From the NCBI RefSeq assembly GCF_042688385.1, contig NZ_JBHUPY010000007.1, positions 2,110 to 66,109 on the forward strand: a DNA stretch of 64,000 nucleotides. Reading direction: 5' to 3'. Below, piece after piece: positions 1,690 to 59,695 of this stretch (positions are counted from its first letter, which is position 1; the number at the start of each line of letters is the position of its first letter). The notes beneath the pieces are model-generated. The model worked only from the letters and a program-made list of their open reading frames with translations. It searched no databases and was not told the DNA's origin. Both the position numbers and the translations under genes were made by a program. This DNA comes from Herpetosiphon sp. NSE202 (GTDB lineage Bacteria > Chloroflexota > Chloroflexia > Chloroflexales > Herpetosiphonaceae).

Positions 1690-2086
1690 CAGAGGGATGA
1701 CAACAAACGATAAAATTATGAAGGATGAGGGATGAAGGATGAACAATCTACGAAGCACGCGAAGATCGCGAAGCACGAATTTTTAGCCACAGATTCCCAC
1801 AGATTTCCCTAATTATGCTTCCCATAGCTCATAGCCTACAGCCGATAGCCTCATCCCTCTGCGCCTCTGCGTTAAAAATCTGATCCACGAAGGACACCAA
1901 GGCCACGAAGGGTTGAAACCGCGAAGGACGCGAAGATCGCGAAGCACGAATTTTTAGCCACAGATTGCCACAGATTAACCAACATTGAGGCTCTAGGCTA
2001 TGGGTTATAGGTTTTTGCCTTCTGCCTTTTGATTTTTGATTTTAGCTCTGTTCTTCATCCCTCATCCCTCATACTTCATCCTTAAA
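1690..2086. repeat. Modular word-mosaic interspersed element. Modules are (ggatgaa)n, cgaag/cgcgaag runs, 'cacgaatttttagccacagattcccacagatt' duplicated internally, atagcc words and 'ctctgcgcctctgcgttaaa'. The ends are inverted ggatgaggg/ccctcatcc repeats.
   Basis: The same oligo modules recur at 2787-3125, 14862-15075, 19895-20070, 23119-23480, 24205-24560, 43376-43570 and 56196-56505, in both orientations. Confidence 0.8.
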
Positions 2087-2786: not shown

Positions 2787-3125
2787 ATGTTGATCCACGA
2801 AGAGCACAAAGCTTGGGCTATTGGCTATTGGCTATTGGCTATCGAAACAATTGTTGCCATTTCAAAAAATCTCCGATAGCCCAGAGCCATCAGCCATACT
2901 TGCTCTGCGCCTCTGCGTTAATTCATTGATCCATAGGATACGAAGGGTTGAAACCGCGAAGAGCGCGAAGGACGCGAAGCACGATTGTTTAGCCACGAAT
3001 TCCACGAATTACACGAAGCTTTTTTCGCCACAGATTCCACAGATTATTATTCCCATAGCCAAGAGCCACATCCCCACGCGCTTTATGCTCTATGCTCTAT
3101 GTTCTATGTTCTTCATCCTTCTATT
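2787..3125. repeat. Word-mosaic interspersed element (gatccacgaag.., cgcgaag, ccacagatt, ctctgcgcctctgcgttaa, (gctctatg/gttctatg)n, ttcatcc)
   Basis: Shares modules with 1690-2086 and the other copies. The ATG-initiated ORF 2821.. is open through this element only by chance. Confidence 0.8.
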
Positions 3126-6908: not shown

Positions 6909-6918
6909 TCGGGGTTGT

Positions 6919-7046
6919 AATCTTCCCTCACCCCAACCCGCTCCTGTGACGTGGACAAGGGGCTTTAATCTGGTGGTTCTCTCCCAATTCCATGGTAAAA
7001 ACGGATGCTCCCTCTCGCCCGCGTTTTCGTGGGAGAGGGAACGTTT
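6919..7046. repeat. PE-family inverted-repeat element
   Basis: Left arm ccctcaccccaaccc...ggggcttta and right arm ccctctcgcccgcgtt..gggagaggg. Confidence 0.8.
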
Positions 7047-8370: not shown

Positions 8371-8578
8371 TCCCTCACCCCAACCCCTCGCCCGCGTTCA
8401 GTGGGAGCGGGGGCTGCTTACAAGGGTAGGTAATAAGATCCCCTCACCCCAACCCCTCTCCCGTGGCGCGGGCGAGGGGCTTTAACGCGCTGGTTCTCCC
8501 GCAATTCCTTGGCGAAACATGGTTGGCTCCCCCTCGCCCGCGTTCAGTGGGAGAGGGGGCTGGGGGGTGAGGGAACAA
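8371..8578. repeat. Two adjacent PE-family elements
   Basis: ccctcaccccaacccctcgcccgcgttcagtgggagcggggg followed by a full ccctcaccccaacccctctcccgtggcgcgggcgaggggctttaa ... gcgttcagtgggagaggggg ctggggggtgaggg copy. Confidence 0.8.
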
Positions 8579-14855: not shown

Positions 14856-14861
14856 TAGTTG

Positions 14862-15075
14862 GGGATCGGGGGCTGGGGGTTGGGGGCTGAGGCTGGGGAT
14901 CGGGGATTAGGGATCAGGAGTTTAACGCAGAGGCGCAGAGCCACGAAAGTATGAAGGATGAGGGATGAAGGATGAAATCAAAAGGCAGAAGGCAAAAGCT
15001 TTTTTAACCACGAAGAGCACGAAGACATAGGGTTATGGGCTGTTGCCTGTTGGCTATCGGAACATGATTCGGGCA
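14862..15075. repeat. Word-mosaic element (ggggatcgggg/ggggctgg, tttaacgcagaggcgcagag, ggatgagggatgaaggatgaa, cacgaag, ggctat)
   Basis: Modules are shared with the other copies, in inverted orientation. Confidence 0.7.
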
Positions 15076-15152
15076 ATTCGTGACATTCGTGGCTAAAAAT
15101 GTTCATGGCTTTTGGCTATGTGTACTTGTGCATTGGCTTGGCAACCGTGTTC

Positions 15153-15362
15153 CCTCACCCCCCAGCCCCTCTCCCACTGAACGCGGGCGAGGGGAGCGCT
15201 TGTGTTTTCGACTAAGAACAATAGGATTAGATGGAAACCAATTATTACCCCACTGGACGCGGGCGAGGGGGAGCACGCATTTGTACCACGCCGTGCGGCA
15301 GAACCACGGCATTAAAGCCCCTCGCCCGCCACGTGGGAGAGGGGTTGGGGTGAGGGGATCTT
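15153..15362. repeat. PE-family element with an internal triplication of the cgggcgaggggag arm
   Basis: ccctcaccccccagcccctctcccactgaacgcgggcgagggg ... cccctcgcccgccacgtgggagaggggttggggtgagggg. Confidence 0.8.
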
Positions 15363-15519
15363 CACAACCTATCCTTGTAAGGATCGGGGGTCAGGGGCTA
15401 GGAATCGGATACGGGTGTAATTCCCAACATCTTTGACAGCCCACTCATGCTTCCGATAGCCAAAAGCCTATAGCCTTGTCCTTCGCGATACCCGATCCCC
15501 AACAACCGATCCCCAATTA

Positions 15520-17340: not shown

Positions 17341-19644
17341 TTACTCTCCGCTTTCGCTGGGCGTAACTTTTTTGCGGCGACGGGGCTTGGCTGGATCCGC
17401 AGGAGCTGGTGCTTCAGCAACTGGCTCAGCTTTTTTGCGACGAGTGGTTTTCTTAGGTTTTTCTTCGACAACTTCGGCAGTCTCAGCAGCTTTGCGCTTG
17501 CCACCACGTTTTTTGGGCTTTTCAGCCACTGGCTCGGCCGCAGCTTCAACTACTGGCTCAGCCACGACTTCGGCCACAGGCTCGCTGATGACTTCGCCAA
17601 CCGGCTCGGCCACAGCTTCAACCACTGGCTCGGCAACTGGCTCAGCCTGGTTATTGGCGGCAATTGCTTCGGCCACACTCAGCGGCACAATCGACTTGCG
17701 GCGGCGGCTTGGCTTACGTGGCTTGATTGCTGCATTGGTCGCAGCGCCCACGGGAACTTCATAATCGATTGGCTCAGCAAACGAATAATCTGCATCGTTA
17801 TCGGGCAATGGCTGCTCTTCAAAGCTTTCGGGCAAGGCCACTTCGTCGATTGGCGCAGTGTAATCGTCGTCAATCGCAATTGCTTGACCACCAATCATCG
17901 CTGGCAACAAGCGTGGCTCTTCGTCAACCAAATCGGGCAAGCTTGGGCCATCATCGAAGGCGGTATGTTCGCTTGGCTCAAAGCTTGAGCCAGCGGCATC
18001 ATGCTGTTCTGGGTTGAGCACAAGCCGATAGTGGGCTTTGGCTCCGCGATTTGAGCGTTGCACTTTGCCTTCATTAATCGCCTGCTTGATCAATTCCTTC
18101 AAGGCATTATTGGTCAATTCAAGTTCTGCGGTATTGCGCATTTCACGCAAATCGTTAAAGATGTCGGCAAACGGCACAGGCTCGCTGTAAACACCCATCA
18201 CTTGATAGAACAATTGCCATTCGCGCTCGCCAAAGCTAAAGCCTTCGGGTAACGCGGGAACCAAGACCGTTTCGCCCAGTTCATCGGGCACAATATCGGC
18301 GGTTGGTTGCTCGCTACGACTGCTGCCACGGCGGCGACGGCGGCGGCCATTGCGATCGCCACGATCGCTGCTTGCAGTTGCATCTTCGCCTTCGCCTAAT
18401 TCCATTGGCTCGTCGGCAATGCCAATCGTTTCGATTGTAATTGGCGCAATTGCTTCTGCTTGCAATTCAAGCTCTTGTTCAAGCTCGCGTTCTGCTTCAA
18501 CTGAAGGCAGATCTTCGGCAAACTGCGAGAGCTTGTAGGGATCTTCATCGGGCAAGAACACTTCGTTGACCGTGCCACTGGTGAAGATCTGAATCTTGCC
18601 GAGGCGTTCGGCTTCGCGCACAAAATCGGTAAATTTGGTGAATGGTTTGCCCTGAGCGTCGCGATAGCGGCTTTCCTTGAAGTTGGGCATCAACTCTTTC
18701 ATCAAGACTTTAAGCGAGCCAAACGAGGTGACATAGCCGCGTTTGCGGGCTAAGTGCAAGGCCTCGACCAACTTATCGTAGATCGCTGCATCGGGGTTGG
18801 TTGGGGTAGTGGCCACGACTGGCGTAATGCTCGGCGCTGGGCGAACGACAATTTCGGCTGGTTTTTCAACTGGCTTTTCAGTGCGTGGCTCTGGTTTTTC
18901 AGCCCGCGAATCAAGCCGCTCGAAATGTGGTTCGCTGTGTTTTTCTGGGCGTTCGCTGCGATCGCGGCGGCGTTCATCGCGGCCATTGCGCTCGCTGCGC
19001 TCACCACGGTCGCTACGTTCGTTGCGCTCGCTGCGGTCGCCACGTTCTGCGCGGTCGTTGCGCTCAACCCGTTCTGGGCGCTCAACGCGCTCGAAGGTTT
19101 TTTCGCTGCGATCGTGGCGTTCGTTGCGGCGGCCACCCATTGGGCGAATATCGACAATTTGCTCGTAGAACAAAAATTCATCGGCGCTTTGGGCAAGGTG
19201 GCTCGAAGCAGCGCCGCCAATCCCAACGATAATCACATCTTTGCCTTCTTGGCGCACACAGTTGACCAAAGCGATAAAATCGCGGTCGCCGGTGATAAAA
19301 ATATAGGCTCCGATGTTGGTGCGGGTGTAAAGCGTGCGCATGGCATCGATACACATGTGCATATCAACACTATTTTTGATGGGACGGCCCATGCGGCCTT
19401 CGTCCTTATCATAATAGTAGGTTGGCACATACATCGGCTCAATATTATTGGCAAATAAGGCGCTAGTAATGCGTGGGTAACGATACCAATCGGCGTAAGC
19501 GCGGGCTACAACAACACGGCCATAGTCTTCGCAGCGTTCCATCAAGGCTTCGAAATTGGGGGTAGCGTCGAACTTCTCGCGAACTGAAACATAAATGTTC
19601 TCGAAGTCGATAAAAACCGCAACATCCTGCTTGGGTTTGTTCAT
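17341..19644 (-). CDS. NYN (LabA-like) nuclease-domain protein with two OST-HTH/LOTUS-like domains and extensive low-complexity repeats
   Basis: The N-terminus has VAVFIDFENI...ITGDRDF (NYN). The central region is ER/DR-rich ((E/D)R(S/A)ER..). Two OST-HTH-like segments are present (YDKLVEALHLARKRGYVTSFGSLK.., FYQVMGVY..ELIKQAINEGKV). The C-terminus has (AEPV/VAEPV)n repeats and a lysine-rich tail. Confidence 0.7.
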   Translation of the reverse strand: MNKPKQDVAVFIDFENIYVSVREKFDATPNFEALMERCEDYGRVVVARAYADWYRYPRITSALFANNIEPMYVPTYYYDKDEGRMGRPIKNSVDMHMCIDAMRTLYTRTNIGAYIFITGDRDFIALVNCVRQEGKDVIIVGIGGAASSHLAQSADEFLFYEQIVDIRPMGGRRNERHDRSEKTFERVERPERVERNDRAERGDRSERNERSDRGERSERNGRDERRRDRSERPEKHSEPHFERLDSRAEKPEPRTEKPVEKPAEIVVRPAPSITPVVATTPTNPDAAIYDKLVEALHLARKRGYVTSFGSLKVLMKELMPNFKESRYRDAQGKPFTKFTDFVREAERLGKIQIFTSGTVNEVFLPDEDPYKLSQFAEDLPSVEAERELEQELELQAEAIAPITIETIGIADEPMELGEGEDATASSDRGDRNGRRRRRRGSSRSEQPTADIVPDELGETVLVPALPEGFSFGEREWQLFYQVMGVYSEPVPFADIFNDLREMRNTAELELTNNALKELIKQAINEGKVQRSNRGAKAHYRLVLNPEQHDAAGSSFEPSEHTAFDDGPSLPDLVDEEPRLLPAMIGGQAIAIDDDYTAPIDEVALPESFEEQPLPDNDADYSFAEPIDYEVPVGAATNAAIKPRKPSRRRKSIVPLSVAEAIAANNQAEPVAEPVVEAVAEPVGEVISEPVAEVVAEPVVEAAAEPVAEKPKKRGGKRKAAETAEVVEEKPKKTTRRKKAEPVAEAPAPADPAKPRRRKKVTPSESGE

Positions 19645-19894
19645 AGGGATTCCAATGTGCTCCTGGGTAGTTCTTTGTTTCTTGGCATGCCATTAAATTT
19701 CTGGCGAGTGATCGAGTACGGTCACCCATTACCGCTTAAAACTACCAACAATTAGACAAATACAATTTGATATGTGACGACATCAAACCAGTTGGAATGA
19801 TGTATTGCGTGGGCGGCATCGCCTCTCATGGGATACTCAACGCGGCTAGTATACCATATCATCGCTGTCTGTATAGCCCTGAATTTGTGCACAA

Positions 19895-20070
19895 GGGGTC
19901 AGGGGCTAGGAGTCAGGGGTCAGGGGCTAGGCTATTGGTTATAGACTATTGGCTATAGGATGACAAATCAGGATCATAGCAACATATCCGCCGCTAGTTC
20001 ATAGCCTGAAGCGCTTAGCCTTCGTAGGCGGTTGGGTTAAAGCCTAGCCCCTGATGCCTGAATCCTGGCC
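19895..20070. repeat. Word-mosaic element (ggggtcaggggctagg, ctattggctata, catagcc...)
   Basis: Shared modules. It includes an inverted copy of the ggggctagg/cctagcccc module. Confidence 0.65.
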
Positions 20071-20081
20071 CCTACTGACGT

Positions 20082-22137: not shown

Positions 22138-23118
22138 ATGCAAGCGATTGTGTTTGATCAAGCTGGCGATGCTGAGGTTTTGAAATTGGCCGAAGTTGCC
22201 GATTTGCAGCCGCAGGCTGGCGAATTGTTGATTCGGGTGCATGCTACCGCCGTCAACCGCGCCGATATTTTGCAGCGCCGTGGGATGTATCCAGCGCCAG
22301 CGGGAGCCTCGGAAATTTTAGGTTTAGAAATTGCTGGCGAAGTGATTGGCCATGGCGCAGGAGTTACAGCGCCAGCGCTGGGCACGCGAATTTGTGCCTT
22401 ATTACCAGGTGGCGGCTATGCCCAACAAGTGGTGATTCCGGCAGAATTGGCAATGCCAATTCCCGCTAATTTGAACTACGAACAAGCAGCTGCTATTCCC
22501 GAAGTCTGGATGACGGCTTATGACAACTTGTTTAACTGGGGTCGTTTGAGCGCTGGTGAACGCTTATTGGTGCATGGCGGCAGCTCAGGCATTGGCACGG
22601 CAGCGATTCAACTGGCAGGTTGGCGCGGTGCTGAAGTGATCATCACTGCTGGCTCGGAGCAAAAAATTGAGCGTTGCCGCGAGTTGGGTGCGCTTGCAGG
22701 CATCAATTATCGCACTGAAGACTGGCCCGAGCGCCTGCAAGAACTGACCAATCAACAAGGCGTTGACGTAGTGTTGGATATGCTAGGAGCCAGCTATTTC
22801 AACGATAACTTGGCCAGTTTGCGGGTTGGCGGGCGTTTGGTGATTATTGCAACCATGGGCGGGGCGCAAACCGAGCTTGATCTGCGCACGTTGATGCTCA
22901 AACGCTTGACGGTGTGTGGCACGACCTTGCGCGCACGCCCGGTTGCCGCCAAAGCTGCGCTGACCCAGCAAATGCTTCAGGATGTATTGCCCCGTTTTGC
23001 AGATGGCACATTTGAGCCAGTAATTGAAGCGGTCTTTGATTTGGCCGATGCTAGCGCTGCCCATCGTTTGCTAGAATCGAGCCAGCACGTGGGCAAAATT
23101 GTGCTGCGAGTGGGCTAG
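22138..23118 (+). CDS. qor: NADPH:quinone oxidoreductase (MDR/zeta-crystallin family)
   Basis: MQAIVFDQAGDAEVLKL...IRVHATAVNRADILQRRGMYP; nucleotide-binding region GGSSGIGTAAIQLA. Confidence 0.85.
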   Translation: MQAIVFDQAGDAEVLKLAEVADLQPQAGELLIRVHATAVNRADILQRRGMYPAPAGASEILGLEIAGEVIGHGAGVTAPALGTRICALLPGGGYAQQVVIPAELAMPIPANLNYEQAAAIPEVWMTAYDNLFNWGRLSAGERLLVHGGSSGIGTAAIQLAGWRGAEVIITAGSEQKIERCRELGALAGINYRTEDWPERLQELTNQQGVDVVLDMLGASYFNDNLASLRVGGRLVIIATMGGAQTELDLRTLMLKRLTVCGTTLRARPVAAKAALTQQMLQDVLPRFADGTFEPVIEAVFDLADASAAHRLLESSQHVGKIVLRVG

Positions 23119-23480
23119 GAGAACAGAGAGCATAGAACAGAGAGCATAGAACAGAGAGCATAGAACATAGTTTGATCCACAAAGGGCACGAATGACGGAA
23201 ACCGCGAAGACCACGAAGAGCGCGAAGAAGGGTTTAACGCAGAGGCGCAGAGAGAACCAGGCTATGGGCTTTTGACTATGGAGATTCTTGAGTTACTACC
23301 CATGTTCCGATAGCCTATAGCCATCAGCCAAAAGCCATCGTTCCTCTGCGCCTCTGCGCCTCTGCGTTAAATGTGATCCACGAAGGCTGTTTTCGCCACA
23401 GATTGGCACAGATTCGGAGGATTAAGCTTTTAACTTCATCCCTCATCCTTCATAATTCATAATTTCGTGGCTCTTTGCTC
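23119..23480. repeat. Word-mosaic element with TIR-like ends (gaacagagagcatagaac x3 at the left, gctctatgttctatag at the right)
   Basis: It contains gatccacaaagg, cgcgaag, tttaacgcagaggcgcagag, atagcc words, ctctgcgcctctgcgcctctgcgttaaa, ccacagattggcacagatt and ttcatccctcatcc. Confidence 0.8.
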
Positions 23481-23486
23481 TATGTT

Positions 23487-24197
23487 CTATAGTTTGGGCA
23501 AGGCTTGGTGGGGAAAGACTTTAACCGCCGAGCCTTTGGCCAAAACAACTGAATAGGGCCTTTCGTTGGCAAGCCAAGCCCACTGCGGGCCATAGATCGC
23601 GCCCCAATCGAAGTGCAGTTGGTAACGCTCCACGGGATACACATCCCACTCAGGGTGCTCAACACGATAGACAATCGGCTTGCCATTGCGCCTGCGCCCA
23701 AAACCCCATTCGTGTTCTTTGAAAAAATGTTCAGTGCTTGCGGCATCAGGGTGATAAAGCTGATTGCTGGCGGTCAGTTTGACCAAATTGGTTTGGCCTT
23801 GCCAGTATAGCGTGTGTTCAACCGTGATTTGGCTTGCACTGTGGTGGGTTTGGCTCTGCAACGGTGCGGCCACATATGGCTCGTTGTAGAGCAGATTCGC
23901 CAAGCTGGCAACCAACCATTGAGGCACAATTTCGCGTATAAACACTACCCCGCGTTGCTGGCCACGACGCACATAAAAACGCAAATTCATCTCGGCAAAA
24001 TTGCGAAAGCCGGGCCAAGCCACGCCTAAAACCTTGGTTTGCAGAAAATCAAACACTACCAAACTCACAAACGCCGAGCCATCACGCCGATCAAGCTCTA
24101 AGCCATTTGGCAAATAGGGCAGCAAAAGTTGATCTGGCACGGCATACGAGATTAAGCCAAGATTGGCCCATTGGGCCGCTAAAAACGCGAAGCTCAT
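23487..24197 (-). CDS. DUF2071 (YqjF-like) family protein
   Basis: The ATG at 24197 is preceded by AAGGAG (5-nt spacer). Sequence MSFAFLAAQWANLGLISYAVP...NFAEMNLRFYVRR. The longer ORF reaching 24284 runs into the repeat. Confidence 0.55.
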   Translation of the reverse strand: MSFAFLAAQWANLGLISYAVPDQLLLPYLPNGLELDRRDGSAFVSLVVFDFLQTKVLGVAWPGFRNFAEMNLRFYVRRGQQRGVVFIREIVPQWLVASLANLLYNEPYVAAPLQSQTHHSASQITVEHTLYWQGQTNLVKLTASNQLYHPDAASTEHFFKEHEWGFGRRRNGKPIVYRVEHPEWDVYPVERYQLHFDWGAIYGPQWAWLANERPYSVVLAKGSAVKVFPHQALPKL

Positions 24198-24204
24198 GTT
24201 TGCT

Positions 24205-24560
24205 CCTTGGTGGATTAGAGATCGGGGTTCAGGGGCTGTGGATTGGAAGGAGGGGCTAGGATTCAGGGGCCAGGGGTCAGTCACACATACTGCCCATAGC
24301 TCAAACTATGATCCCTAATTTTGCCACAGATTGGCACAGATTCTTAGGATTATGATTGTGCCAGCCCACAGCCCATAGCCAAAAGCCATTGTTCCTCTAC
24401 GCCGCTGCGTTAAATGCTGATCCACGAAGGACAAGAAGCATGGAACCGCGAAGATAGGACTTTTGCCTTCTGACTTTTGACTTTTGACTTGCCCCCTAGC
24501 CCTTTCATCCTTCATCCCTCATCCTTCGTCCTTCACTCTGTTCTCTGTTCGTCTGCTATA
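24205..24560. repeat. Word-mosaic element
   Basis: ggggttcaggggct.., ccacagattggcacagatt, catagcc words, ctctacgccgctgcgttaaa, gatccacgaagg, (cttttga)n, ttcatccttcatccctcatcc, ctctgttctctgttc. Confidence 0.8.
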
Positions 24561-24595
24561 CTGAGGCCAATGGTTCTTTAGCTTCGGTAGGCCGA

Positions 24596-25768
24596 TTGAT
24601 GCAACCTGCAAGCCTCAGTATTTTGACCCCAACCCCGCTGTATCCAGCCCATGCTGGCGCGAAAACCCATAGTCTCAATGCTTTACGCCAATTAAGTCAC
24701 TATTATACCGTCGATAGTTATTGTTTAACCAAGCAACCAGAAAGCGTCGATTGGGGGCCGCTAGCGCAATGGTGCCGCGATCTGCGGGCATTCGCGCCAA
24801 CTAAGCCAACGCGGCTCAACCTCGACCCGCCAGCGGTTGATTTGGAGTTTTCGCAGCCGATGTTGGATTATTTGCAGCAACGCTGGCTACAAGCGGCCCC
24901 AAATTTGCTACAACTTGAGGGCACGACAATGGCCCAATATGCGCCGTTTGCACGACGCTTGGGCGTGCAGGCAACTATTTGTACCGTGCACCAAGTTGGG
25001 TTTGTGGCCCAATGGCGACGCTTGCAACGCGAAAAAAGCTGGCCGCTGCGTGCGCGCCGCTTAGCAGGTTTGCTCAGTTTGTGGCTGTATGAGCAGCGTG
25101 CCTTGCGCCATTGCGATTTGCTCGTAACCTTGAGCGAAACCGATCAACAGACCTTGGCGCGTTGGCAGCCCAAATTAAAAATCGTAACCGTGCCTTCGGG
25201 CGTTGATTTAACTGAATGGCCATTATGTCGGCAGCCTCAAGCACCACAGCAAGTGCTATTTGTGGGCAATTATTTTCATCCGCCGAATGTTGAAGGTGCT
25301 TTGTGGCTGGCGCGTGAGGTCTGGCCATTGGTTCAAGCCCAAATGCCTGAGGCGCGTTTGATGCTGGCAGGCCGCAGCCCCACGCCTGAAATTCAACAAC
25401 TGGCGAGTGCTACAATTGAAGTGCCAGGCACAGTCGATGATTTGCGCGCAATTTATCGCCAAAGTCGAGTGGTGGCAGCGCCAATTTTCTGGGGCAGCGG
25501 CGTGCGGATTAAAATTCTCGAAGGCTTGGCGGCGGGCTTGCCGTTGGTAACAACTGCGCTTGCTGCGGAAGGCTTACCACTTAAACCCGAAGAACATGCC
25601 CTGTTTGCCGAGCGCCCAGCAGATTTTGCCGCCGCGCTTGTCCGCGTCTTGCAAAACCCAGCTTTGGGTACACAACTTGGTGACGCAGGCCGCCAGTTAA
25701 TTGCCGAGCGCTACGATTGGCGCGCAATTGGCCTGCAACTACAGCAACACTATCAGGCCTTACTTTAG
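24596..25768 (+). CDS. Family 4 glycosyltransferase (GT-B)
   Basis: VLFVGNYFHPPNVEGALWL ... GVRIKILEGLAAGLPLVTT is the GT4 C-terminal EX7E-type region. Confidence 0.8.
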   Translation: MMQPASLSILTPTPLYPAHAGAKTHSLNALRQLSHYYTVDSYCLTKQPESVDWGPLAQWCRDLRAFAPTKPTRLNLDPPAVDLEFSQPMLDYLQQRWLQAAPNLLQLEGTTMAQYAPFARRLGVQATICTVHQVGFVAQWRRLQREKSWPLRARRLAGLLSLWLYEQRALRHCDLLVTLSETDQQTLARWQPKLKIVTVPSGVDLTEWPLCRQPQAPQQVLFVGNYFHPPNVEGALWLAREVWPLVQAQMPEARLMLAGRSPTPEIQQLASATIEVPGTVDDLRAIYRQSRVVAAPIFWGSGVRIKILEGLAAGLPLVTTALAAEGLPLKPEEHALFAERPADFAAALVRVLQNPALGTQLGDAGRQLIAERYDWRAIGLQLQQHYQALL

Positions 25769-25782
25769 CCAGGAGCTTGAGC

Positions 25783-26121
25783 ATGGAAATGGATCATGTC
25801 GCGGTTGTTGTCAACAATATTGCTGAATCAACTGCATGGTATGTTGAGCAATGTGGAGCACAGGTCTTGTATGCTGACGATACATGGGCTTTTTTGCGGA
25901 TTGGCCAAGGCAAGTTGGCCTTGGTCATGGCCTATCAACACCCGCCGCATGTGGCGGTGCGCGTTGATGAAACCCAGCTGAATGCCCTTGCAGCGCAGCA
26001 CAATCAGCCGATTGATCGCCATCGCGATGGAACCAAAGGCTTTTATCTGCGCGATCCCAATGATAATGTGCTCGAAGTTATTTGCTATCCACCAGCAGAA
26101 ACGGTTTACACTGGGGGCTAG
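25783..26121 (+). CDS. VOC/glyoxalase-family protein
   Basis: MEMDHVAVVVNNIAESTAWY...HVAVRVDE...GFYLRDPNDNVLEV is the paired beta-alpha-beta-beta-beta module. Confidence 0.75.
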   Translation: MEMDHVAVVVNNIAESTAWYVEQCGAQVLYADDTWAFLRIGQGKLALVMAYQHPPHVAVRVDETQLNALAAQHNQPIDRHRDGTKGFYLRDPNDNVLEVICYPPAETVYTGG

Positions 26122-26189
26122 GGTTCAGGGTTCAGGGGTTAGGGTTCAGGCTATTGGCTATTTGTAATAGTTCATCAGGTTAACCACGG

Positions 26190-26330
26190 CTTGATCCCCT
26201 CACCCCCTCTCCCGCCTGCGAGCGACGGGGAACCGCTGAATCAGTGCTCCCCTCGCCCGCGTTCTCGTGGGAGAGGGGCTGGGGGTGAGGGCATGCACCT
26301 GGTTGCCAATCCAATGTACTAGTATAGCTA
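26190..26330. repeat. PE-family element plus a 'gcatgcacctggttgccaatccaatg' tail, forming a direct repeat with 27196-27336
   Basis: The two copies are near-identical over about 140 bp, in the same orientation, and flank the carbonic anhydrase gene. Confidence 0.8.
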
Positions 26331-26423
26331 TGGGCTACTGAACCTTCGCGCTTTTCGCGATCTTCGCGCTTTCAAGCCTTCGTGGTGCTTAGTAGTACTT
26401 CATGAATCAAATTTACGAGGAGC

Positions 26424-27143
26424 ATGATGACTGATTTTGCTGATGAAAACAAGGATCGCCAACTGCTTGATGCCATTCGTGGCCGAGCCTCGATGGAAGA
26501 TATTGCTAATCTGCGCAGCCCTGAAGTCAGTACACCTGCGGCAGCAATCGAGGCGCTAAAACTGGGCAACGAACGCTTTTTTAGTGGCGAAACCCAGCGC
26601 ACAGTAGTTAGCGTCAATCAACGCCGCTCGCAAATTATTAGCCAAACCCCATTTTCGGTGATTCTTGGCTGCTCGGATAGCCGCGTACCACCGCAGATGA
26701 TTTTCGACTGTAATTTGGGCGATTTGTTTGTGGTGCGGGTAGCAGGCCAAATTGTCGATCAAGCAACCCAAGGCAGCATTGAATATGCGATCTCGCATCT
26801 TAAGTGCAAGTTGATTGTGGTGATGGGCCATGAAGGTTGTGGCGCAGTGAAAGCAGCGCTTGCCAGCGACGAGCAAATTGCCAAAGAATCAGCCAATATT
26901 CGCTACCTGATCGACCAAATTCGGCCTGTGTGCCAGCGCTTGCCTGCAATTCGCGACGAAAAAGCTCGCATGCGTGAGGCCGTAACCCAACATGTGCGCG
27001 CCCAAGTAGCGCTTTTACGCCAAAATCCGGTTGTGGCGGCCTACGAAGCGGCTGGTACCATTGCCGTGATTGGAGCCTACTATGAGATTGGCAGCGGTGC
27101 TGTTGATTTCTTCGTCACCCCCGATGAACTAGCGTTTGATTAG
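26424..27143 (+). CDS. Beta-class carbonic anhydrase
   Basis: GCSDSRVPPQMIFDCNLGDLFVVRVAGQ and VMGHEGCGAV are the beta-CA zinc-ligand motifs (Cys/His/Cys). Confidence 0.9.
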   Translation: MMTDFADENKDRQLLDAIRGRASMEDIANLRSPEVSTPAAAIEALKLGNERFFSGETQRTVVSVNQRRSQIISQTPFSVILGCSDSRVPPQMIFDCNLGDLFVVRVAGQIVDQATQGSIEYAISHLKCKLIVVMGHEGCGAVKAALASDEQIAKESANIRYLIDQIRPVCQRLPAIRDEKARMREAVTQHVRAQVALLRQNPVVAAYEAAGTIAVIGAYYEIGSGAVDFFVTPDELAFD

Positions 27144-27195
27144 CAGCGCGGGGAAAAGAACATAGAGCAAAGATGTATCGGTACATTGCGTTAAC

Positions 27196-27336
27196 CACCG
27201 TCTGATCCCCTCACCCCCTAGCCCCCTCTCCCGTCGAACGGGCGAGGGGGAACCACGGAGTCGGTGCTCCCCTCGCCCGCGTTCAGTGGGAGAGGGGCTG
27301 GGGGTGAGGGCATGCACCTGGTTGCCAATCCAATGA
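27196..27336. repeat. PE-family element plus 'gcatgcacctggttgccaatccaatg' tail (direct-repeat partner of 26190-26330)
   Basis: See 26190-26330. Confidence 0.8.
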
Positions 27337-27453
27337 ACCAGTACACCTATATTCTATGTTCTTTGCTCTCCTGCCCCTTCATTTGCACAATGGAGTGCTA
27401 TCCGTAATAATGCAGCGTTAAAGCTACTCCAGTCATGGAAGGACACCTCGGAT

Positions 27454-31164: not shown

Positions 31165-31745
31165 CAAGGTTCCCTCACCCCCCAACCCCCTCTCCCACTA
31201 GACGCGGGCGAGGGGGAGCACGCATTTTTACCGACTAATGGCGTAAGAACCATCGTTGACTCCCCCTCGCTCGGGCACGGGAGAGGGGTTGGGGTGAGGG
31301 GATCTTAACAACCGATCCCCAAATGTTCTATGTTCTATGTGTACTAGTTCATTAGGTTGGCAACCATGTCCCCTCACCCCCCAGCCCCCTCTCCCACGAA
31401 AACGCGGTCGAGGGGGAGCCGACCATGGTTCGCCAAGAAATTGCGTAAGAACCACGTGCTAAAGCCCTTCGCCTGCGCCACGGGAGAGGGGTTGGGGTGA
31501 GGGGATCTTAACAACCGATCCCCAAATGTTCTATGTTCTATGTTCTATGTGTACTAGTTCACTAGGTTGGCAACCATGTCCCCTCACCCCCCAACCCCCT
31601 CTCCCACGAAAACGCGGGCGAGGGGGAGCCGACCATGGTTCGCCAAGAAATTGCGTAAGAACCACGTGCTAAAGCCCCTCGCCCGCGCCACGGGAGAGGG
31701 GTTGGGGTGAGGGGATCTTAACAACCGATCCCAACCCCAAATATT
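31165..31745. repeat. About 2.7 tandem copies of a 210-bp composite unit (PE-family element plus 'gatccccaaatgttctatgttctatgtgtactagttcattaggttggcaaccatg')
   Basis: Copies are at about 31165-31366, 31367-31576 and 31577-31745 with over 90 percent identity. The array lies between the convergent cphA and rqcH genes. Confidence 0.85.
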
Positions 31746-38390: not shown

Positions 38391-39032
38391 ATGCCACACA
38401 ATCAACCAACTGTCGAATTACGCCCAGCCAACGCCAACGATTTGGCGATTTTGGGCGAATTGTTGCTCGATTTATATGATGCAGAATTGCCCGATTCGTT
38501 GCGTGGAGCCGATAGCCAACGCCAAGCCTTGTTGCGCTACACCTTGCATGCCAACAATTTTGCTGGCGTGCGCGGGCGCTATGTCGTGCGCAATCAAGCA
38601 GGCGAGATTGTCGGCATGGCAGGCATTCAATTCCCCAACGAGCCAGCCCCTGATCGAGTGCCACGCGGCACATTGAACATGGCGGTGCAATTGATTGGCC
38701 TGAAGCATACGCTGCATCTATTGAGCACCGTCGCGGCCTCGATGCTAATGCCACCACCAAAATTCAACCCCGACTATGCCTATATTCATGGGATTGTGGT
38801 GCGTGCCCAGCAGCGCGGCCAAGGCTATGGTGCGGCGATTATGCAGGCAGTTGAGCAGCAATTAGCGGCGCGCAAGGTTGCTGGCGCACAACTACAAGTG
38901 ATCGTTGATAACCAGCAAGCGGCCAAATTATACGAGCGCTTGGGCTATCGCACGGTCTATCGCTCACCAAAATGGCTCGATCGCGTGACGATTCCCAATA
39001 TTCTGATGCAAAAACCATTGACAACCGGCTAG
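38391..39032 (+). CDS. GNAT-family N-acetyltransferase
   Basis: GGAG sits 6 nt before the ATG at 38391. IHGIVVRAQQRGQGYGAAIM...LYERLGY. Confidence 0.75.
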   Translation: MPHNQPTVELRPANANDLAILGELLLDLYDAELPDSLRGADSQRQALLRYTLHANNFAGVRGRYVVRNQAGEIVGMAGIQFPNEPAPDRVPRGTLNMAVQLIGLKHTLHLLSTVAASMLMPPPKFNPDYAYIHGIVVRAQQRGQGYGAAIMQAVEQQLAARKVAGAQLQVIVDNQQAAKLYERLGYRTVYRSPKWLDRVTIPNILMQKPLTTG

Positions 39033-39062
39033 GCTAACCACATATGTTGAGGGAGGGAAATC

Positions 39063-39653
39063 ATGTACAAAATTTCAGCGGCGTTACCCGTTAAGCGCCA
39101 ACTACCACTATCAACCATAGGACTATGGATAGCGGCCCATCTGCCTGGCCTCTTTCTCATTGCTTGGCTCGCTCGGCTTGATGATGCAGCAATTCCTGAT
39201 ATTATGTTTATTCCATTAATGCTGATTGTATCTACTATCTTGATCCAAACTGGACAAGCAATGGTAATCAGCAAATTGACCAAAAAACGCCTATTTATTG
39301 CTTGGTGGCCGATTACGATCGTTTTATCGGTCGTGTTCCAACGCATGTTTGGCGCATCACTTTATTTTTTATGGCCATTTGCGACATTTCAAGCAACATT
39401 ATTTATAGCAATTGCCCAATTTATCATCGCAAAATACTATGGTTATACAATGCGTTTCTGGGTTGTGCTAAACCTTGGCGCATATGTTATGCATAAAGTG
39501 CTGCTCCATATTTTCGATTACTACAAGCATCTAGCAATATCAAACTATGCAGTTATGATTATCACAATTACAACCATGTTTATAACTAGCATAGGCTTAT
39601 TTTTTATCCAGCCAAACCACGAATCAAAATCAAGACTTAAAGGTTTGCTTTAA
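39063..39653 (+). CDS. Polytopic membrane protein, paralog A; the local sequence is AT-rich
   Basis: GAGGGAGGG RBS. Five or six TM helices. Motifs QTGQAMVISKLTKKR and C-terminal GLFFIQPNHES are shared with the downstream paralog. Confidence 0.6.
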   Translation: MYKISAALPVKRQLPLSTIGLWIAAHLPGLFLIAWLARLDDAAIPDIMFIPLMLIVSTILIQTGQAMVISKLTKKRLFIAWWPITIVLSVVFQRMFGASLYFLWPFATFQATLFIAIAQFIIAKYYGYTMRFWVVLNLGAYVMHKVLLHIFDYYKHLAISNYAVMIITITTMFITSIGLFFIQPNHESKSRLKGLL

Positions 39654-39718
39654 ACATACAACCAAAACAGAGTATATCCGCAAAACACAATCTAAATAAT
39701 TAAGCAAAGAGGTCGAGA

Positions 39719-40378
39719 ATGTATGAAGTTGCCCATGCCCGCTCACAACGACTGCGAATTCCAGTCGTCACATGGCTGTATTGGATTGGCGTGCATATTC
39801 CAGCGCTGCTTTTGAGTGTGTATAGTATGCTGTTTTTTGTGCAAGATCAGCCTGATGGCGGTGAAATTGTATATTTTGGATTATTTTTGCTTATGGAATT
39901 TGTTTGTATTGGAAGTATCAGCATTGGACAAGCTTGGATTTTGAAAAGAACAATTAATCCACAATTATTTTCATCATGGATTTCGAAAACAATGTTTACG
40001 GCCATGGGCTTTGGCATATTAAGTTTTATGCTGCAGCTTAATTCTATAATCGATAGAATGTATCAAACCCCTCGGACTATAGCTACAGTGCAACAGTTAT
40101 TACCTTCTCGATTAATCTTAATGACCCTGCTTGGTGGATTGATTGGTTTTGTTCAAGCACGAATTCTCCATAGCTATGGCTATCGTATGTGGCATTGGAT
40201 AGCAGTACAAGGGCTGAGTTATCTTTGTACAACGAGCATTATTGGCTGGTTGATGACCGATGTACGCTACATCTACTTAGCAGGAACAATTCCGATTGTT
40301 ATGGCTGGCGCTGGGATAATTAATAGTTTGGGGCTTTTTCTGATTCAGCCAATTCATAATCATGGGCAAAAACTATAA
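39719..40378 (+). CDS. Polytopic membrane protein, paralog B
   Basis: SIGQAWILKRT and C-terminal GLFLIQPIHNHGQ match paralog A. Six TM helices. Confidence 0.6.
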   Translation: MYEVAHARSQRLRIPVVTWLYWIGVHIPALLLSVYSMLFFVQDQPDGGEIVYFGLFLLMEFVCIGSISIGQAWILKRTINPQLFSSWISKTMFTAMGFGILSFMLQLNSIIDRMYQTPRTIATVQQLLPSRLILMTLLGGLIGFVQARILHSYGYRMWHWIAVQGLSYLCTTSIIGWLMTDVRYIYLAGTIPIVMAGAGIINSLGLFLIQPIHNHGQKL

Positions 40379-40405
40379 CCTAGCTGTAATAGTTCATTAC
40401 ACAGC

Positions 40406-40549
40406 CTGATCCCCTCACCCCAACCCCTCTCCCGTGGCGCGGGCGAGGGGCTTTAACTTCGTGGTTCTTGCGCAAAGCCTTGGTAAACACGGGTACTCCC
40501 CTCGCCCGCGTTCAGTGGGAGAGGGGCTGGGGGTGAGGGGAATCGATCA
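40406..40549. repeat. PE-family inverted-repeat element (canonical full copy)
   Basis: gatcccctcaccccaacccctctcccgtggcgcgggcgaggggctttaac...ctcgcccgcgttcagtgggagaggggctgggggtgagggg. Confidence 0.85.
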
Positions 40550-43375: not shown

Positions 43376-43570
43376 TTTGATCCACGAAGGGAACGAAGAG
43401 CACGAAGGACGGAAACCGCGAAGGACGCGAAGGACGCGAAGATGGGCTTTTGGCTCTAGGATTCATCCTTCATCCTTCGCTTCTCTGCGCCTCTGCGTTA
43501 AAAATTTGTCCACGAATTGCCCGAAGCATGTTCCGATAGCCTACAGCCTTGGATTCTAGTTCCTGAACCT
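43376..43570. repeat. Word-mosaic element
   Basis: gatccacgaaggg, cgaag/cgcgaag runs, ttcatccttcatcc, ctctgcgcctctgcgttaaaaa, catagcctacagcc. Confidence 0.75.
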
Positions 43571-43591
43571 TCCAAGAGTAGGTTGTTAAGA

Positions 43592-43730
43592 TCCCCTCAC
43601 CCCAACCCCTCTCCCGTGGCGCGGGCGAGGGGCTTTCATACTGTGGTTTTGCAACGATTCTTCGTTAATACTACGGCTCCCCCTCGCCCGCGTTCAGTGG
43701 GCGAGGGGGTTGGGGGTGAGGGGGCAAACC
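43592..43730. repeat. PE-family element, followed by (gttctatg)n at 43745-43785
   Basis: Canonical left arm and right arm ctcgcccgcgttcagtgggcgagggggttgggggtgaggg. Confidence 0.8.
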
Positions 43731-43788
43731 GTCTTTAATGCCATGCCCCCTATGTTCTATGTTCTATGCTCTATGTTCTATGTTCTTA

Positions 43789-45900: not shown

Positions 45901-46011
45901 CAGCGACCCTCCAAGCTCGATAGCTCGTCTGTTGGTCGCATCATACTCTAGGCCTCGCTGCTTGTCCACTACAGCCGATAGCGCAGAGATTGCGACGACC
46001 CATGTCCGATC

Positions 46012-46224
46012 GTTCCCTCACCCCCCAGCCCCCTCTCCCACTGGACGCGGGCGAGGGGGAGCACAATGGGCAAGCCAAGGAATGGTGCAAGAACCACAGC
46101 GTTAAAGCCCCTCGCCCGTTGGACGGGAGTCATTCGAGATAGAAACCGCTATCTACAATTGGACGAACCACAGCGTTAAAGCCCCTCGCCCGTCCAACGG
46201 GCGAGGGGTTGGGGTGAGGGGATT
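46012..46224. repeat. PE-family element with a duplicated internal arm
   Basis: ccctcaccccccagccccctctcccactggacgcgggcgaggggg ... gttaaagcccctcgcccg (x2) ... gggcgaggggttggggtgagggg. Confidence 0.8.
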
Positions 46225-46458
46225 TTCAAATCTTACCCTTGGAAGTTTCTCTTACCTCGATTTCACTCAACGCTGAAGAAAAATTGGCGTGAGGGGAACT
46301 TATTTCAATCATTGACGTTATTCCTGCATAGGCATATGCGATTTTATTGATATGCCTTCGATTTACTTAGGTTGGGGGGTGCAATGAGGGAGGAATTGGG
46401 TTGATCATGGCCAACACCAGGCCCAGATTCTTGCAGCAGTATTCGGGACATACTGCCT

Positions 46459-48475: not shown

Positions 48476-48674
48476 TAAGCATTTAACAAAAAACTTGCGT
48501 ATTTTGCACGAAGCTATGTTATAATGGCCCAAAGGTGCCGTTAGGAGGCACTACCACTGTGAAGAACCTCGTCGCTTGATGCACGTATTATCGTTCGGAT
48601 GTCCGCTGTACTCCCGATCATTCAAGCATGCACTGACGACCCCAACAGTAAGAACCACGACCTGTGGAGTAATA

Positions 48675-56195: not shown

Positions 56196-56505
56196 AGAGC
56201 ATAGAACATAGAACATAGAACATAGAACATAGGGATTGCAGTATTGATCCACGAAGGGCACGAAGGCACACAAAGGATCGGAACCGCGAAGAACGCGAAG
56301 ATCGCGAAGTGTACGCAGGCTATAGGCGATAGGCTTTTGGCGATAGGCTTTTGGCTTTTGCTATTCCAACCCATGTCCGAAAGCCAATAGCCCAAAGCCT
56401 ATCGCCATCGGTTCTCTGCGCCTCTGCGTTAAAACCCGACCCCACGTTTTTCATCCTTCATCCTTCATCCTTCATCCTTCATCCTTCATCCCTCATCCCT
56501 TACTA
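56196..56505. repeat. Word-mosaic element ((catagaac)x4 ... gatccacgaaggg, cgcgaag, (ggcgataggcttttg)x2, ctctgcgcctctgcgttaaaa, (ttcatcc)x7)
   Basis: Shares modules with the other copies and has simple-repeat termini. Confidence 0.8.
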
Positions 56506-59600: not shown

Positions 59601-59695
59601 ATTTGCGTTTAAATTCACCCTTGACAATCACTATAATTCCTTTAAACTCATGCTTTAAACCTAACATATAAAAACATCCCACAAGGAGGTTGTTT

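Follow-up and report, generated by a model that had tools for sequence, protein, structure and literature searches.

Two-layer word mosaics in the intergenic spacers of Herpetosiphon and their likeness to the inverted arms of GxxExxY gene cassettes

The 64-kb stretch of the Herpetosiphon sp. NSE202 genome that we analyzed (contig NZ_JBHUPY010000007.1, positions 2,110 to 66,109; hereafter, the window) carries in its spacers sequences assembled from a common set of short tandem words, such as the element at 23119-23489 (E5). This raises the question of what these mosaics are, where their words come from and whether they move. The original prediction, which was made from the letters of the window, regarded them as a modular interspersed family and offered three readings: miniature inverted-repeat transposable elements (MITEs), recombination scaffolds or transcribed RNAs. 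Our analysis shows that the mosaics are a non-coding filler of spacers, which is composed of two layers of words in nested inverted order, occurs genus-wide and is hypervariable in its interior. The outer layer (modules A, D, F, G and H in Table 1, in which a lower-case letter or a prime denotes the reverse complement) consists of heptamers that are restricted to Herpetosiphon-like genomes and are largely lineage-specific. The inner layer (modules B, C and E) consists of 8-10-nt words of the form C-R-C-R-R-A-K, with a TTAA-like leader before each array.

The word modules were found at every locus listed in the original prediction by reading of the sequence, by Tandem Repeats Finder (TRF) and by comparison with shuffled sequence, and TRF detected arrays with periods of 7, 8, 9, 10 and 14 nt at each locus. 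To measure enrichment, we compared exact or near-exact counts in the window with those in dinucleotide-preserving shuffles. The 19-mer CTCTGCGCCTCTGCGTTAA (two mismatches at most) was present in 8 copies against 0.00 expected, TGATCCACGAAG, which is the head of module B, in 7 against 0.22, GCCACAGATTNNCACAGATT in 4 against 0.00, and GGATGARGGATGA in 19 against 0.17. The period-7 arrays reported by TRF were those of AGAACAT, TTCATCC, GGCTATT, GACTTTT and AGGGGTC. When an array was defined as two or more words and the window was divided by a hand-made gene map, 65 arrays fell in the 8.8 kb of intergenic DNA and one in the 54.9 kb of coding DNA. The claim of nine or more intergenic loci was also sustained, given that at least 10 mosaics were seen; E7 and a minimal mosaic (Table 1) are additional to the listed loci, and A' words also occur in the spacer at 31172-31745. 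The mosaics, a palindromic MITE that is described below, or both occupy 14 of the 17 intergenic regions of at least 300 bp, the array-free spacers being short, and together they make up about two thirds of the intergenic DNA of the window. In this sense, they are indeed a major structural feature. Convergent, divergent and tandem spacers contain them alike.

The non-coding nature of the mosaics was confirmed as well, because the open reading frames (ORFs) that cross them are either start-codon extensions of genes or belong to no family. Such spurious ORFs and N-terminal extensions make the mosaics a trap for gene callers, which they mislead. The neighboring genes are housekeeping genes (those for quinone oxidoreductase, DUF2071 protein, glycosyltransferase, carbonic anhydrase, HolB, cyanophycin synthetase, Era and others). 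There was no transposase or nuclease gene among the flanking genes and no transposase gene anywhere in the window, and a search for tRNA and tmRNA genes found none. The same modules were present on many contigs of H. aurantiacus, H. geysericola, H. giganteus and H. llansteffanensis; therefore, they are neither peculiar to the window nor parts of a single insertion sequence or prophage.

E5 occupies the full spacer between the stop codons of the quinone oxidoreductase (plus strand) and DUF2071 (minus strand) genes. Its right border lies at 23489, beyond the 23480 first noted, and its final word holds the DUF2071 stop codon. The inverted simple-repeat ends ascribed to this element were borne out by outer arms of 19 nt (23132-23150 and 23472-23490) that are 89% complementary. 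Within these arms, TTTAACGCAGAGGCGCAGAG and CTCTGCGCCTCTGCGTTAAA (modules C and C') form an inverted pair that is perfect over 20 nt, and a further inverted pair of 42 nt is 74% complementary. Module C' contains the 19-mer CTCTGCGCCTCTGCGTTAA, which is common to more than 15 phyla, and the segment with the second B head and E is kept in both H. giganteus and H. geysericola.

Next, we considered the order of the modules, which had been thought to vary freely. The words are shared and occur in both orientations, as predicted, but their order is not free. A recurrent inner syntax was observed, in which B (TGATCCACGAAG with CGCGAAG words) is followed by E (TTTTAGCCACAGATTnnCACAGATT) or by D (GGCTAT with a loop), and then by D' (ATAGCC) and C' (CTCTGCGCCTCTGCGTTAAA). 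In a survey of 30 C'-anchored copies from four Herpetosiphon species and the window, two types of unit recurred: a linear unit, B-E-linker (GATTATGTTCC)-D'-C', often in tandem iteration, and a hairpin unit, B-D-loop-D'-C'. Eight E-D'-C' units could be aligned, and their sequence is conserved, linker included. The alignment also relates E to the left arm C: the CACAGAT words that follow TTTAGC in E are the diverged equivalent of CGCAGAG after TTTAAC in C. These observations bear on the notion that the arrays are independent, slippage-born microsatellites that arose separately in each spacer. Among the long simple repeats of prokaryotes, those with heptanucleotide units are the most frequent and have been attributed to slippage (Mrazek 2007, as summarized in PMC4679880); however, the same multi-module order and the same linkers are found at many loci of several species, so that independent slippage cannot be their source. 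This explanation is thus largely refuted, and we regard it as very improbable. The same holds for a variant that likens the mosaics to integron attC sites, such as those in clusters of attC sites lacking integron integrases (CALIN). The attC cores are RYYYAAC and GTTRRRY, and the ends of the C hairpin (GTTTAAC...GTTAAAT) resemble them. However, neither an integrase nor ORF-attC arrays were present, the elements stand singly between housekeeping genes, and most C' ends misfit GTTRRRY. The cores fit only some copies (GTTTAAC at 23232 and GTTAAAT at 23366), the others having GTTAAAA or GTTAATT. A CRISPR (clustered regularly interspaced short palindromic repeats) array was also rejected, as the units are 7-14 nt long and directly tandem, and are not 24-48-nt repeats with spacers.

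Every mosaic is a set of nested inverted arrays, and a long imperfect hairpin could therefore form from either strand. The mosaics fold far better than shuffles (z -5.69, -4.17 and -4.10 for E5, E10 and E1, respectively), with a fold energy of -125.8 kcal/mol for E5. This introduces the question of whether they are selected, cis-acting structures, namely transcribed stem-loops that end, insulate or stabilize transcripts, or RNase III sites, like repetitive extragenic palindromic (REP) sequences, bacterial interspersed mosaic elements (BIMEs) or the stems of rRNA intervening sequences (IVSs). In line with such a role, the arrays touch or include stop codons at several sites (in E5, and in E7, where the TAG stop of the upstream gene at 26119 sits inside the first H word, CTAGGG), they fill convergent spacers fully, and RNase III-cut inverted repeats around an ORF are known from the IVS/S23p element (PMC4990558). 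However, divergent spacers, which contain promoters, are used equally often, and the region 22900-24700 had no terminator-like U tracts, while its promoter and terminator-like signals were not above those of shuffles. The consensus RNA fold of the eight E-D'-C' units was weak (-1.85 kcal/mol), with zero compensatory pairs. The arms of D-loop-D' hairpins paired no better with each other than with arms swapped in from other copies (p = 0.39), which suggests that the hairpin potential is a generic result of having words in both orientations. Rfam gave no match at gathering score in the window, E5 included, or in 18 loci from other phyla, and a search at E values up to 5 over 22900-24700 returned nothing relevant, so that a known RNA family was rejected. 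The interiors of the mosaics are not conserved between close species, whereas the adjacent promoter and stop regions are, and the related GxxExxY flanks described below show no G.U asymmetry. Of the transcribed-RNA idea, the strong folds remain, but covariation, strand asymmetry and a conserved consensus structure are all lacking. Taken together, we consider selection for such structures unlikely; a cellular role, as RNA stem-loops at transcript ends or as protein-binding arrays, is unproven and would be secondary.

We also compared the orientation of the units with the local coding strand at 20 Herpetosiphon loci, and found 11 concordant and nine discordant. In the window, all seven TGATCCACGAAG heads and all four double CCACAGATT (E) arrays are in plus-strand orientation, irrespective of how the flanking genes are oriented. 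Given the split of 11 to nine, this is not established as a replication-strand rule.

To examine how the mosaics change, every spacer was compared with the orthologous regions of H. geysericola (L129 and L130) and H. giganteus (L131). The coding blocks are approximately 93-96% identical in nucleotide sequence to those of H. geysericola over 21 kb, with one block at 87.8%; HolB is 98% identical to that of H. geysericola, and quinone oxidoreductase is 94-95% identical to those of both species, in keeping with 94-95% amino acid identity of the flanking proteins compared. The mosaic-bearing spacers (at least seven orthologous ones) are filled in all three species. Their gene-proximal arrays and the adjacent stop and promoter regions are conserved, as illustrated by the 70 nt preceding the glycosyltransferase gene, which are almost the same in the three species, while the interiors of the mosaics are restructured. 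This can be seen in the module orders of E5 (Table 1). In E9, likewise, alignment with the H. geysericola counterpart is limited to module B on the left and the A' array on the right, the remainder having been replaced. The promoter-proximal stretch that follows E6 (24561-24595) is kept in all three species, but the E6 mosaic itself is not. The filled sites, the retained outer arrays and the rearranged interiors point to resident remodeling rather than to transposition in and out; this would be the signature of resident DNA that is quickly remodeled by slippage, unit duplication and module exchange, and not of whole elements that hop.

These comparisons also bear on the proposal that the mosaics are MITEs, with simple-repeat terminal inverted repeats (TIRs), that are moved in trans by a transposase encoded elsewhere. 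The inverted terminal arrays (the outer arms of E5, and GGATGAA...TTCATCC in E1), the many dispersed copies in both orientations in four species, and the restriction to spacers would all suit such elements. However, the ends of the mosaics differ among copies (arrays of A, F or H words that vary in length, or no array at all), with no constant TIR, and no target-site duplication was seen at them. In addition to the lack of a transposase gene in the window, no protein recurred as a neighbor in the 116 listed loci of the genome scan described below, and the orthologous sites are occupied as stated above. The MITE reading of the original prediction is therefore not upheld: we judge this origin improbable, and cut-and-paste transposition of whole mosaics today is unlikely.

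True MITE-like behavior belongs instead to a second, unrelated repeat that is interleaved with the mosaics, a palindromic MITE (CCCTCACCCC...GGGGTGAGGG). Its core (CCCTCACCCC..CCCTCTCCC..GGGAGAGGGG..GGGGTGAGGG) spans 95-133 bp, and the full element of approximately 200 bp has this core between the TIRs TGTA(C/A)T(A/G)GT(T/A)CATT and AATG(A/T)AC(C/T)AGTACA. It shows true presence and absence among the window, H. geysericola and H. giganteus, and often directly follows CTATG within a D or A word. At 40377-40545, for example, the window has the palindromic MITE where H. geysericola has a mosaic of e and b words, and the spacers orthologous to the minimal mosaic carry H, D and A words instead of the MITE in the other two species. 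At 31172-31745, between convergent genes, a 210-bp unit made of the MITE core and ATGTTCT words is repeated 2.7 times in tandem; the orthologous spacer of H. geysericola is a word mosaic of 275 bp, and that of H. giganteus measures 189 bp and contains one MITE.

A more distant relative (L117, 78% protein identity) has just vestigial, isolated words beside the homologous genes, and its gene order is partly conserved. The vestigial words support the idea that the word expansion is probably lineage-specific. The breakpoints in the gene order of L117 coincide with spacers that hold mosaics in the window. One side observation from this comparison (L117 6001-9206 against window 23487-27143) is that the DUF2071 gene lies on the opposite side of the glycosyltransferase-glyoxalase-carbonic anhydrase block. 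The module swaps and the breakpoints in mosaic spacers are compatible with a recombination scaffold, as had been suggested. Between species with 94-95% identity of the flanking proteins compared, the mosaics evolve faster than any other part of the genome. Hence, they should serve as practical strain markers and are likely substrates for rearrangement.

Next, we investigated the distribution of the words beyond the genus. The 19-mer CTCTGCGCCTCTGCGTTAA was scanned against 185,579 species genomes (596 Gb, both strands), which yielded at least 116 stretches against about four expected by chance (our own estimate from the size of the collection). Nineteen of the 116 listed stretches are from Herpetosiphon. 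The other hosts among the matches listed are further Chloroflexota, Verrucomicrobiota, Kiritimatiellia, Lentisphaerota, Planctomycetota, Acidobacteriota, Gemmatimonadota, Desulfobacterota and Geobacteraceae, Nitrospinota, Chlamydiales (Chlamydiota), Beta- and Gammaproteobacteria, Poribacteria, Marinimicrobia, Armatimonadota and Ignavibacteria, often with several copies per metagenome-assembled genome (MAG). On reading, many of the copies outside Herpetosiphon proved to be simple hairpins of the form TTAA-(CGCAGAGN)n - short loop - (NCTCTGCG)n-TTAA, and 47 of 110 non-Herpetosiphon matches among those listed had a forward array within 220 nt upstream, where a left arm would lie. The two layers differ in their distribution. 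Heptamers A, D, F and G were found in Herpetosiphon and one related Chloroflexia MAG only, with tandem H heptamers also in two other loci, whereas the CRCRRAK words (C, E, some B words, and CGCAAAG) are spread across phyla, more than 15 for CGCAGAG, CGCGAAG and CACAGAT. A blastn search of the element against plasmids gave no match, and viral contigs gave four matches for each of two modules; this small number suggests that phages are not the main carriers.

The sharing of words by distant phyla might reflect the specificity of a protein rather than common origin. According to this idea, the arrays would be multi-site platforms for a sequence-specific protein (a nucleoid-associated protein, a single-strand-binding protein or a trans-acting GxxExxY-like protein). 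Fixed periods of 7, 8 and 9 nt with conserved word cores and variable spacers, the identity of the 19-mer in many phyla, and the fact that word sets vary by GxxExxY lineage yet agree on both arms are in its favor, and a similar proposal has been made for TAACTGA repeats (PMC4679880). However, no candidate protein was identified in the window, periods of 7-9 nt do not correspond to the helical repeat of double-stranded DNA, and the conserved non-word linkers and unit order favor the copying of whole segments. We therefore rate a binding platform as a rather improbable explanation.

No protein family recurred beside the C/C' arrays in the 116 listed loci, except for two GxxExxY genes, and the ORFs between distant arm pairs are housekeeping genes or belong to no family. 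At these two loci (Table 1), an ORF of 136-141 amino acids has a forward array upstream and a reverse array downstream. Both encode GxxExxY proteins (TIGR04256 at 1e-39; PF13366, PDDEXK_3). The PDDEXK_3 family is listed as being of unknown function, with 'multiple transfers' between divisions (PMC3424549), and a search by sequence found no solved structure for GxxExxY proteins. We scanned metagenomes with the two proteins and obtained 80 loci (L133-L212), 64 of which had at least 200 nt on both sides of the gene. A forward CRCRRAK array was present within 250 nt upstream in 52 of these 64 loci, a reverse array downstream in 47, and arrays on both sides in 44. In controls, arrays were found in 7 of 93 distal pieces and in 9.8% of random pieces of the window. 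The flanking words were CGCAAAG (95), CGCAGAG (34), CGCAAGG (29), CACAGAT (27), CGCCAAG (15) and CGCGAAG (13), the period was 8 in 118 of 142 cases, and the commonest leader was TTTAA; on low-GC contigs, the arms consist of TCACACAGATCTCACAGAT. In 53 of 66 cases, complementarity between the two flanks of one gene exceeded that obtained with swapped flanks (p = 3e-9), which indicates that the arms co-vary. There was no strand asymmetry of G.U pairs in this pairing (20 against 20), so that nothing specific to RNA is indicated. As side observations, extra empty hairpins often stand in tandem on either side of these cassettes, and two unrelated contigs have a cassette at the same site upstream of a purE-like gene (a reading of its N terminus), with different words (CGCAGAG in L157 and GACAAAG in L164).

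The inner layer of the mosaics has several of these features. The arm TTAACGCAGAGGCGCAGAG is identical in module C and in GxxExxY flanks. Module C reads TTTAA-CGCAGAGG-CGCAGAG, module B reads GAAAC-CGCGAAGGA-CGCGAAG... and TGATC-CACGAAG, and module E reads TTTAGC-CACAGATT-nC-CACAGATT. Given the shared words, period and TTAA-type leader, and the inverted layout of C and C' in E5, modules B, C and E can be assigned, by sequence, to the class of arrays that forms the inverted arms of GxxExxY mini-cassettes. We propose, and give it about even odds, that the mosaics are gene-less derivatives of GxxExxY-type cassette ends combined with arrays like the short tandemly repeated repetitive (STRR) sequences, resident in the genome and either selfish or neutral. 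According to this proposal, GxxExxY-type cassette ends would have been seeded into spacers, the gene having been lost or never present. Amplification would have been followed by change in place, through replication slippage of the arrays, through tandem duplication of a unit of approximately 100-190 bp as a second process, and through ectopic recombination or gene conversion between copies, with the shared modules as homology anchors. Insertion of the separate TIR-MITE into D or A words may have added further change. The alternatives weighed here and this proposal are not all mutually exclusive.

Several points weigh against this origin. A profile of 80 GxxExxY proteins detected no such gene in the window or in 22 Herpetosiphon loci, that is, in about 280 kb of Herpetosiphon DNA examined, and we infer descent only from shared words and leaders. 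Outside E5, where the inverted C/C' pair is clean, most C' copies are solitary, or face a diverged E array with which they pair weakly. The words common to several phyla could reflect a common binding protein and not common descent. The original spread to hundreds of spacers is left without a mechanism, ectopic conversion is deduced from module patterns and not from tract analysis, and the strong fold energies may leave room for a functional RNA or DNA structure.

A bolder extension, which we offer as no more than a tentative idea, is that CRCRRAK arrays with TTAA leaders are the ends of tiny mobile cassettes that span phyla, whose sole gene encodes a GxxExxY PD-(D/E)XK nuclease that would recognize its own arms, and that the Herpetosiphon mosaics are a graveyard or a non-autonomous swarm of such ends, expanded into most of the long spacers in this genome. 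If this speculation is true, it would provide a role for the GxxExxY family and a new type of bacterial transposable or homing element. The cross-phylum 19-nt arm and the flanks of GxxExxY genes (arrays at about 70% of the sampled genes) join two orphan observations, namely a nuclease family that is abundant but has no known function and odd words in spacers of numerous environmental bacteria, into one testable hypothesis, that of a widespread mobile or selfish element.

Table 1. Word modules, mosaic elements and associated features (window coordinates unless a locus is named)
Feature	Coordinates	Orientation	Composition and context
Module A			CATAGAAC / AGAACAT; period 7 or 14
Module B			TGATCCACGAAGG, then CACGAAG/CGCGAAG words; period 9
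Module C			TTAACGCAGAGGCGCAGAG; period 8
Module D			GGCTATN / GGCTTTTG; period 7
Module E			TTTTAGCCACAGATTnnCACAGATT; period 9-10
Module F			GGATGAA/G; period 7
Module G			CAAAAGNC / GACTTTT; period 7
Module H			CAGGGGC; period 7
E5	23119..23489		A B C D loop D' C' B E F' b A'
Module A in E5	23120..23167	+	(AGAACAGAGAGCAT) x3.4 with CATAGAAC words (TRF); outer left array, 1 nt past TAG stop
Module B in E5	23171..23231	+	TTTGATCCACAAAGG, then CACGAA / CGCGAAG / CACGAAG 9-nt words (CRCRRAK class)
Module C in E5	23233..23252	+	TTTAACGCAGAGGCGCAGAG; left arm of inner hairpin, perfect 20-nt inverted repeat with 23352-23371
D-loop-D' in E5	23260..23342		GGCTAT/GGCTTTTG words, 26-nt loop, ATAGCC/AAAAGCC words; hairpin center
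Module C' in E5	23343..23371	+	(CCTCTGCG) x3, then TTAAA; right arm
Second B head and E in E5	23374..23434	+	TGATCCACGAAGG, then GCCACAGATTGGCACAGATT with linker
F' b A' in E5	23435..23489	-	TTCATCC words, TTTCGTGG, GCTCTATGTTCTA; outer right arrays, inverted relative to left side
E5 order, window			A B [C D loop d] c B E f b a
E5 order, H. giganteus			A B B D(MITE)D loop d c B E f b a
E5 order, H. geysericola			A B [E f b] c B E* f b a
E1	1690..2086		F B E D' C' B E D G a F'; between convergent genes
E2	2787..3125		B D loop D' C' B B E d a f; divergent spacer
E3	14856..15110		H C B F G B D b; begins directly after stop codon
E4	19893..20075		H (CAGGGGC) and D words, then d and h words; heptamers only; divergent spacer
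E6	24205..24560		H E D' C'(degenerate) B g h F' a; divergent spacer
E7	26120..26385		H and D words, MITE copy 26166-26332, b words (CTTCGCG, CTTCGTG)
E9	43376..43786		B D F' C' B'' D', MITE 43569-43745, A' array; downstream of holB
E10	56196..56499		A B D loop D' C' F'(x7)
Minimal mosaic	27144..27453		A word(s), MITE copy, a word(s)
Palindromic MITE copies	6913-7039, 8372-8573, 15115-15400, 26166-26332, 27170-27349, 31172-31745, 40390-40545, 43569-43745, 46007-46290		
Bracketed GxxExxY gene, L008	4100-4830		
Bracketed GxxExxY gene, L108	5650-6280		

Among the other mosaics of the window, E1 has two tandem B-E units inside inverted GGATGAA arrays, E3 is followed by a MITE copy and then by more h, d and b words up to 15519, and the A' array of E9 stops 2 nt short of a stop codon. 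The window also has several features apart from the mosaics. An ORF for a pseudouridine synthase (48576-50927; S4 and PseudoU_synth_2 domains) has a long C-terminal tail of in-frame 18/36-nt repeats (49600-50780) with a GC content of 0.60-0.64, and the register of these repeats differs from that of the H. geysericola orthologue. The low-GC region 39029-40378 (0.39) contains two paralogous ORFs of approximately 200 amino acids, read as membrane proteins, opposite which H. geysericola has a single gene (L129 7462-8118); the region looks like a local duplication or insertion. An NYN-domain gene (17341-19644) has internal tandem repeats of 9/24/27/36 nt (17521-17647 and 18986-19092), and the lengths of its orthologues differ (755, 767 and 771 amino acids). 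Finally, the ORF at 59690-60865, in a stretch of low GC content (0.41), encodes a fusion of a WXG100 domain (N-terminal) with a calpain-type cysteine protease domain.

The original prediction recognized no described family in these elements. This view stands in that neither Rfam nor the literature gave a match: in the searchable literature, which is incomplete, we found no description of the array strings, of the Herpetosiphon repeats or of the repeats flanking GxxExxY genes, although informal prior knowledge is possible. It has to be modified in that the heptamers resemble the STRR sequences and long simple sequence repeats (LSSRs), and the 8-10-mers belong to the cross-phylum class of GxxExxY flanks. 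The TAACTGA and STRR heptamers are intergenic and have a patchy taxonomic distribution; slippage and horizontal spread are suspected, and their function is unknown (PMC4679880, in its summary of Mrazek 2007). Like STRRs and LSSRs, the mosaics contain short tandem heptamers, mostly in 2-7 copies, with many units per genome in patchy taxa, and their period-7 arrays are intergenic, as are all but one of the arrays of the window. Moreover, as with the bearers of TAACTGA repeats (Beggiatoaceae, cyanobacteria and Bacteroidetes), the hosts are filamentous gliding bacteria. The units of STRR1-3 are CCCCAGT, TTGGTCA and CAACAGT, whereas those of the mosaics are AGAACAT, GGATGAA, GGCTATT, GACTTTT and CAGGGGC, and the host belongs to the Chloroflexota and not to the cyanobacteria; to our knowledge, none of the Herpetosiphon heptamers is a published STRR unit. 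A further difference from STRRs as described is that the heptamers of the mosaics are combined with CRCRRAK arrays of 8-10 nt, the whole following a recurrent syntax and a nested inverted arrangement.

BIMEs are abundant, strain-variable intergenic mosaics of a few short, hairpin-forming motifs, including REP sequences, in alternating orientation. The Herpetosiphon mosaics likewise combine few motifs in alternating orientation, but they are made of tandem words, lack the 35-40-nt REP palindrome and also use divergent spacers; neither a RAYT (REP-associated tyrosine transposase) nor another Y1 transposase was found in the window. With MITEs, the mosaics share small size, the lack of coding capacity, dispersion, inverted ends and AT-containing termini, and they differ in having inconstant ends, no visible target-site duplication and residence at orthologous loci of three species. 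The S23p intervening sequences consist of a small, selfish ORF (for a four-helix-bundle protein) between inverted repeats that form a stem, and are horizontally acquired and excised by RNase III (PMC4990558). The arm-gene-arm layout of the GxxExxY cassettes is similar to that of these IVSs of 23S rRNA; however, IVSs lie within rRNA, whereas the mosaics lie in mRNA spacers, lack an ORF and show no sign of RNA processing. Compared with the GxxExxY flanks themselves, the mosaics have no ORF between or beside the arms, and concatenate three word types that are mixed with heptamers. Nevertheless, they have the same words, the same period of 8-9 nt and the same TTAA-type leader as those flanks and, in the C/C' pair of E5, a like inverted layout.

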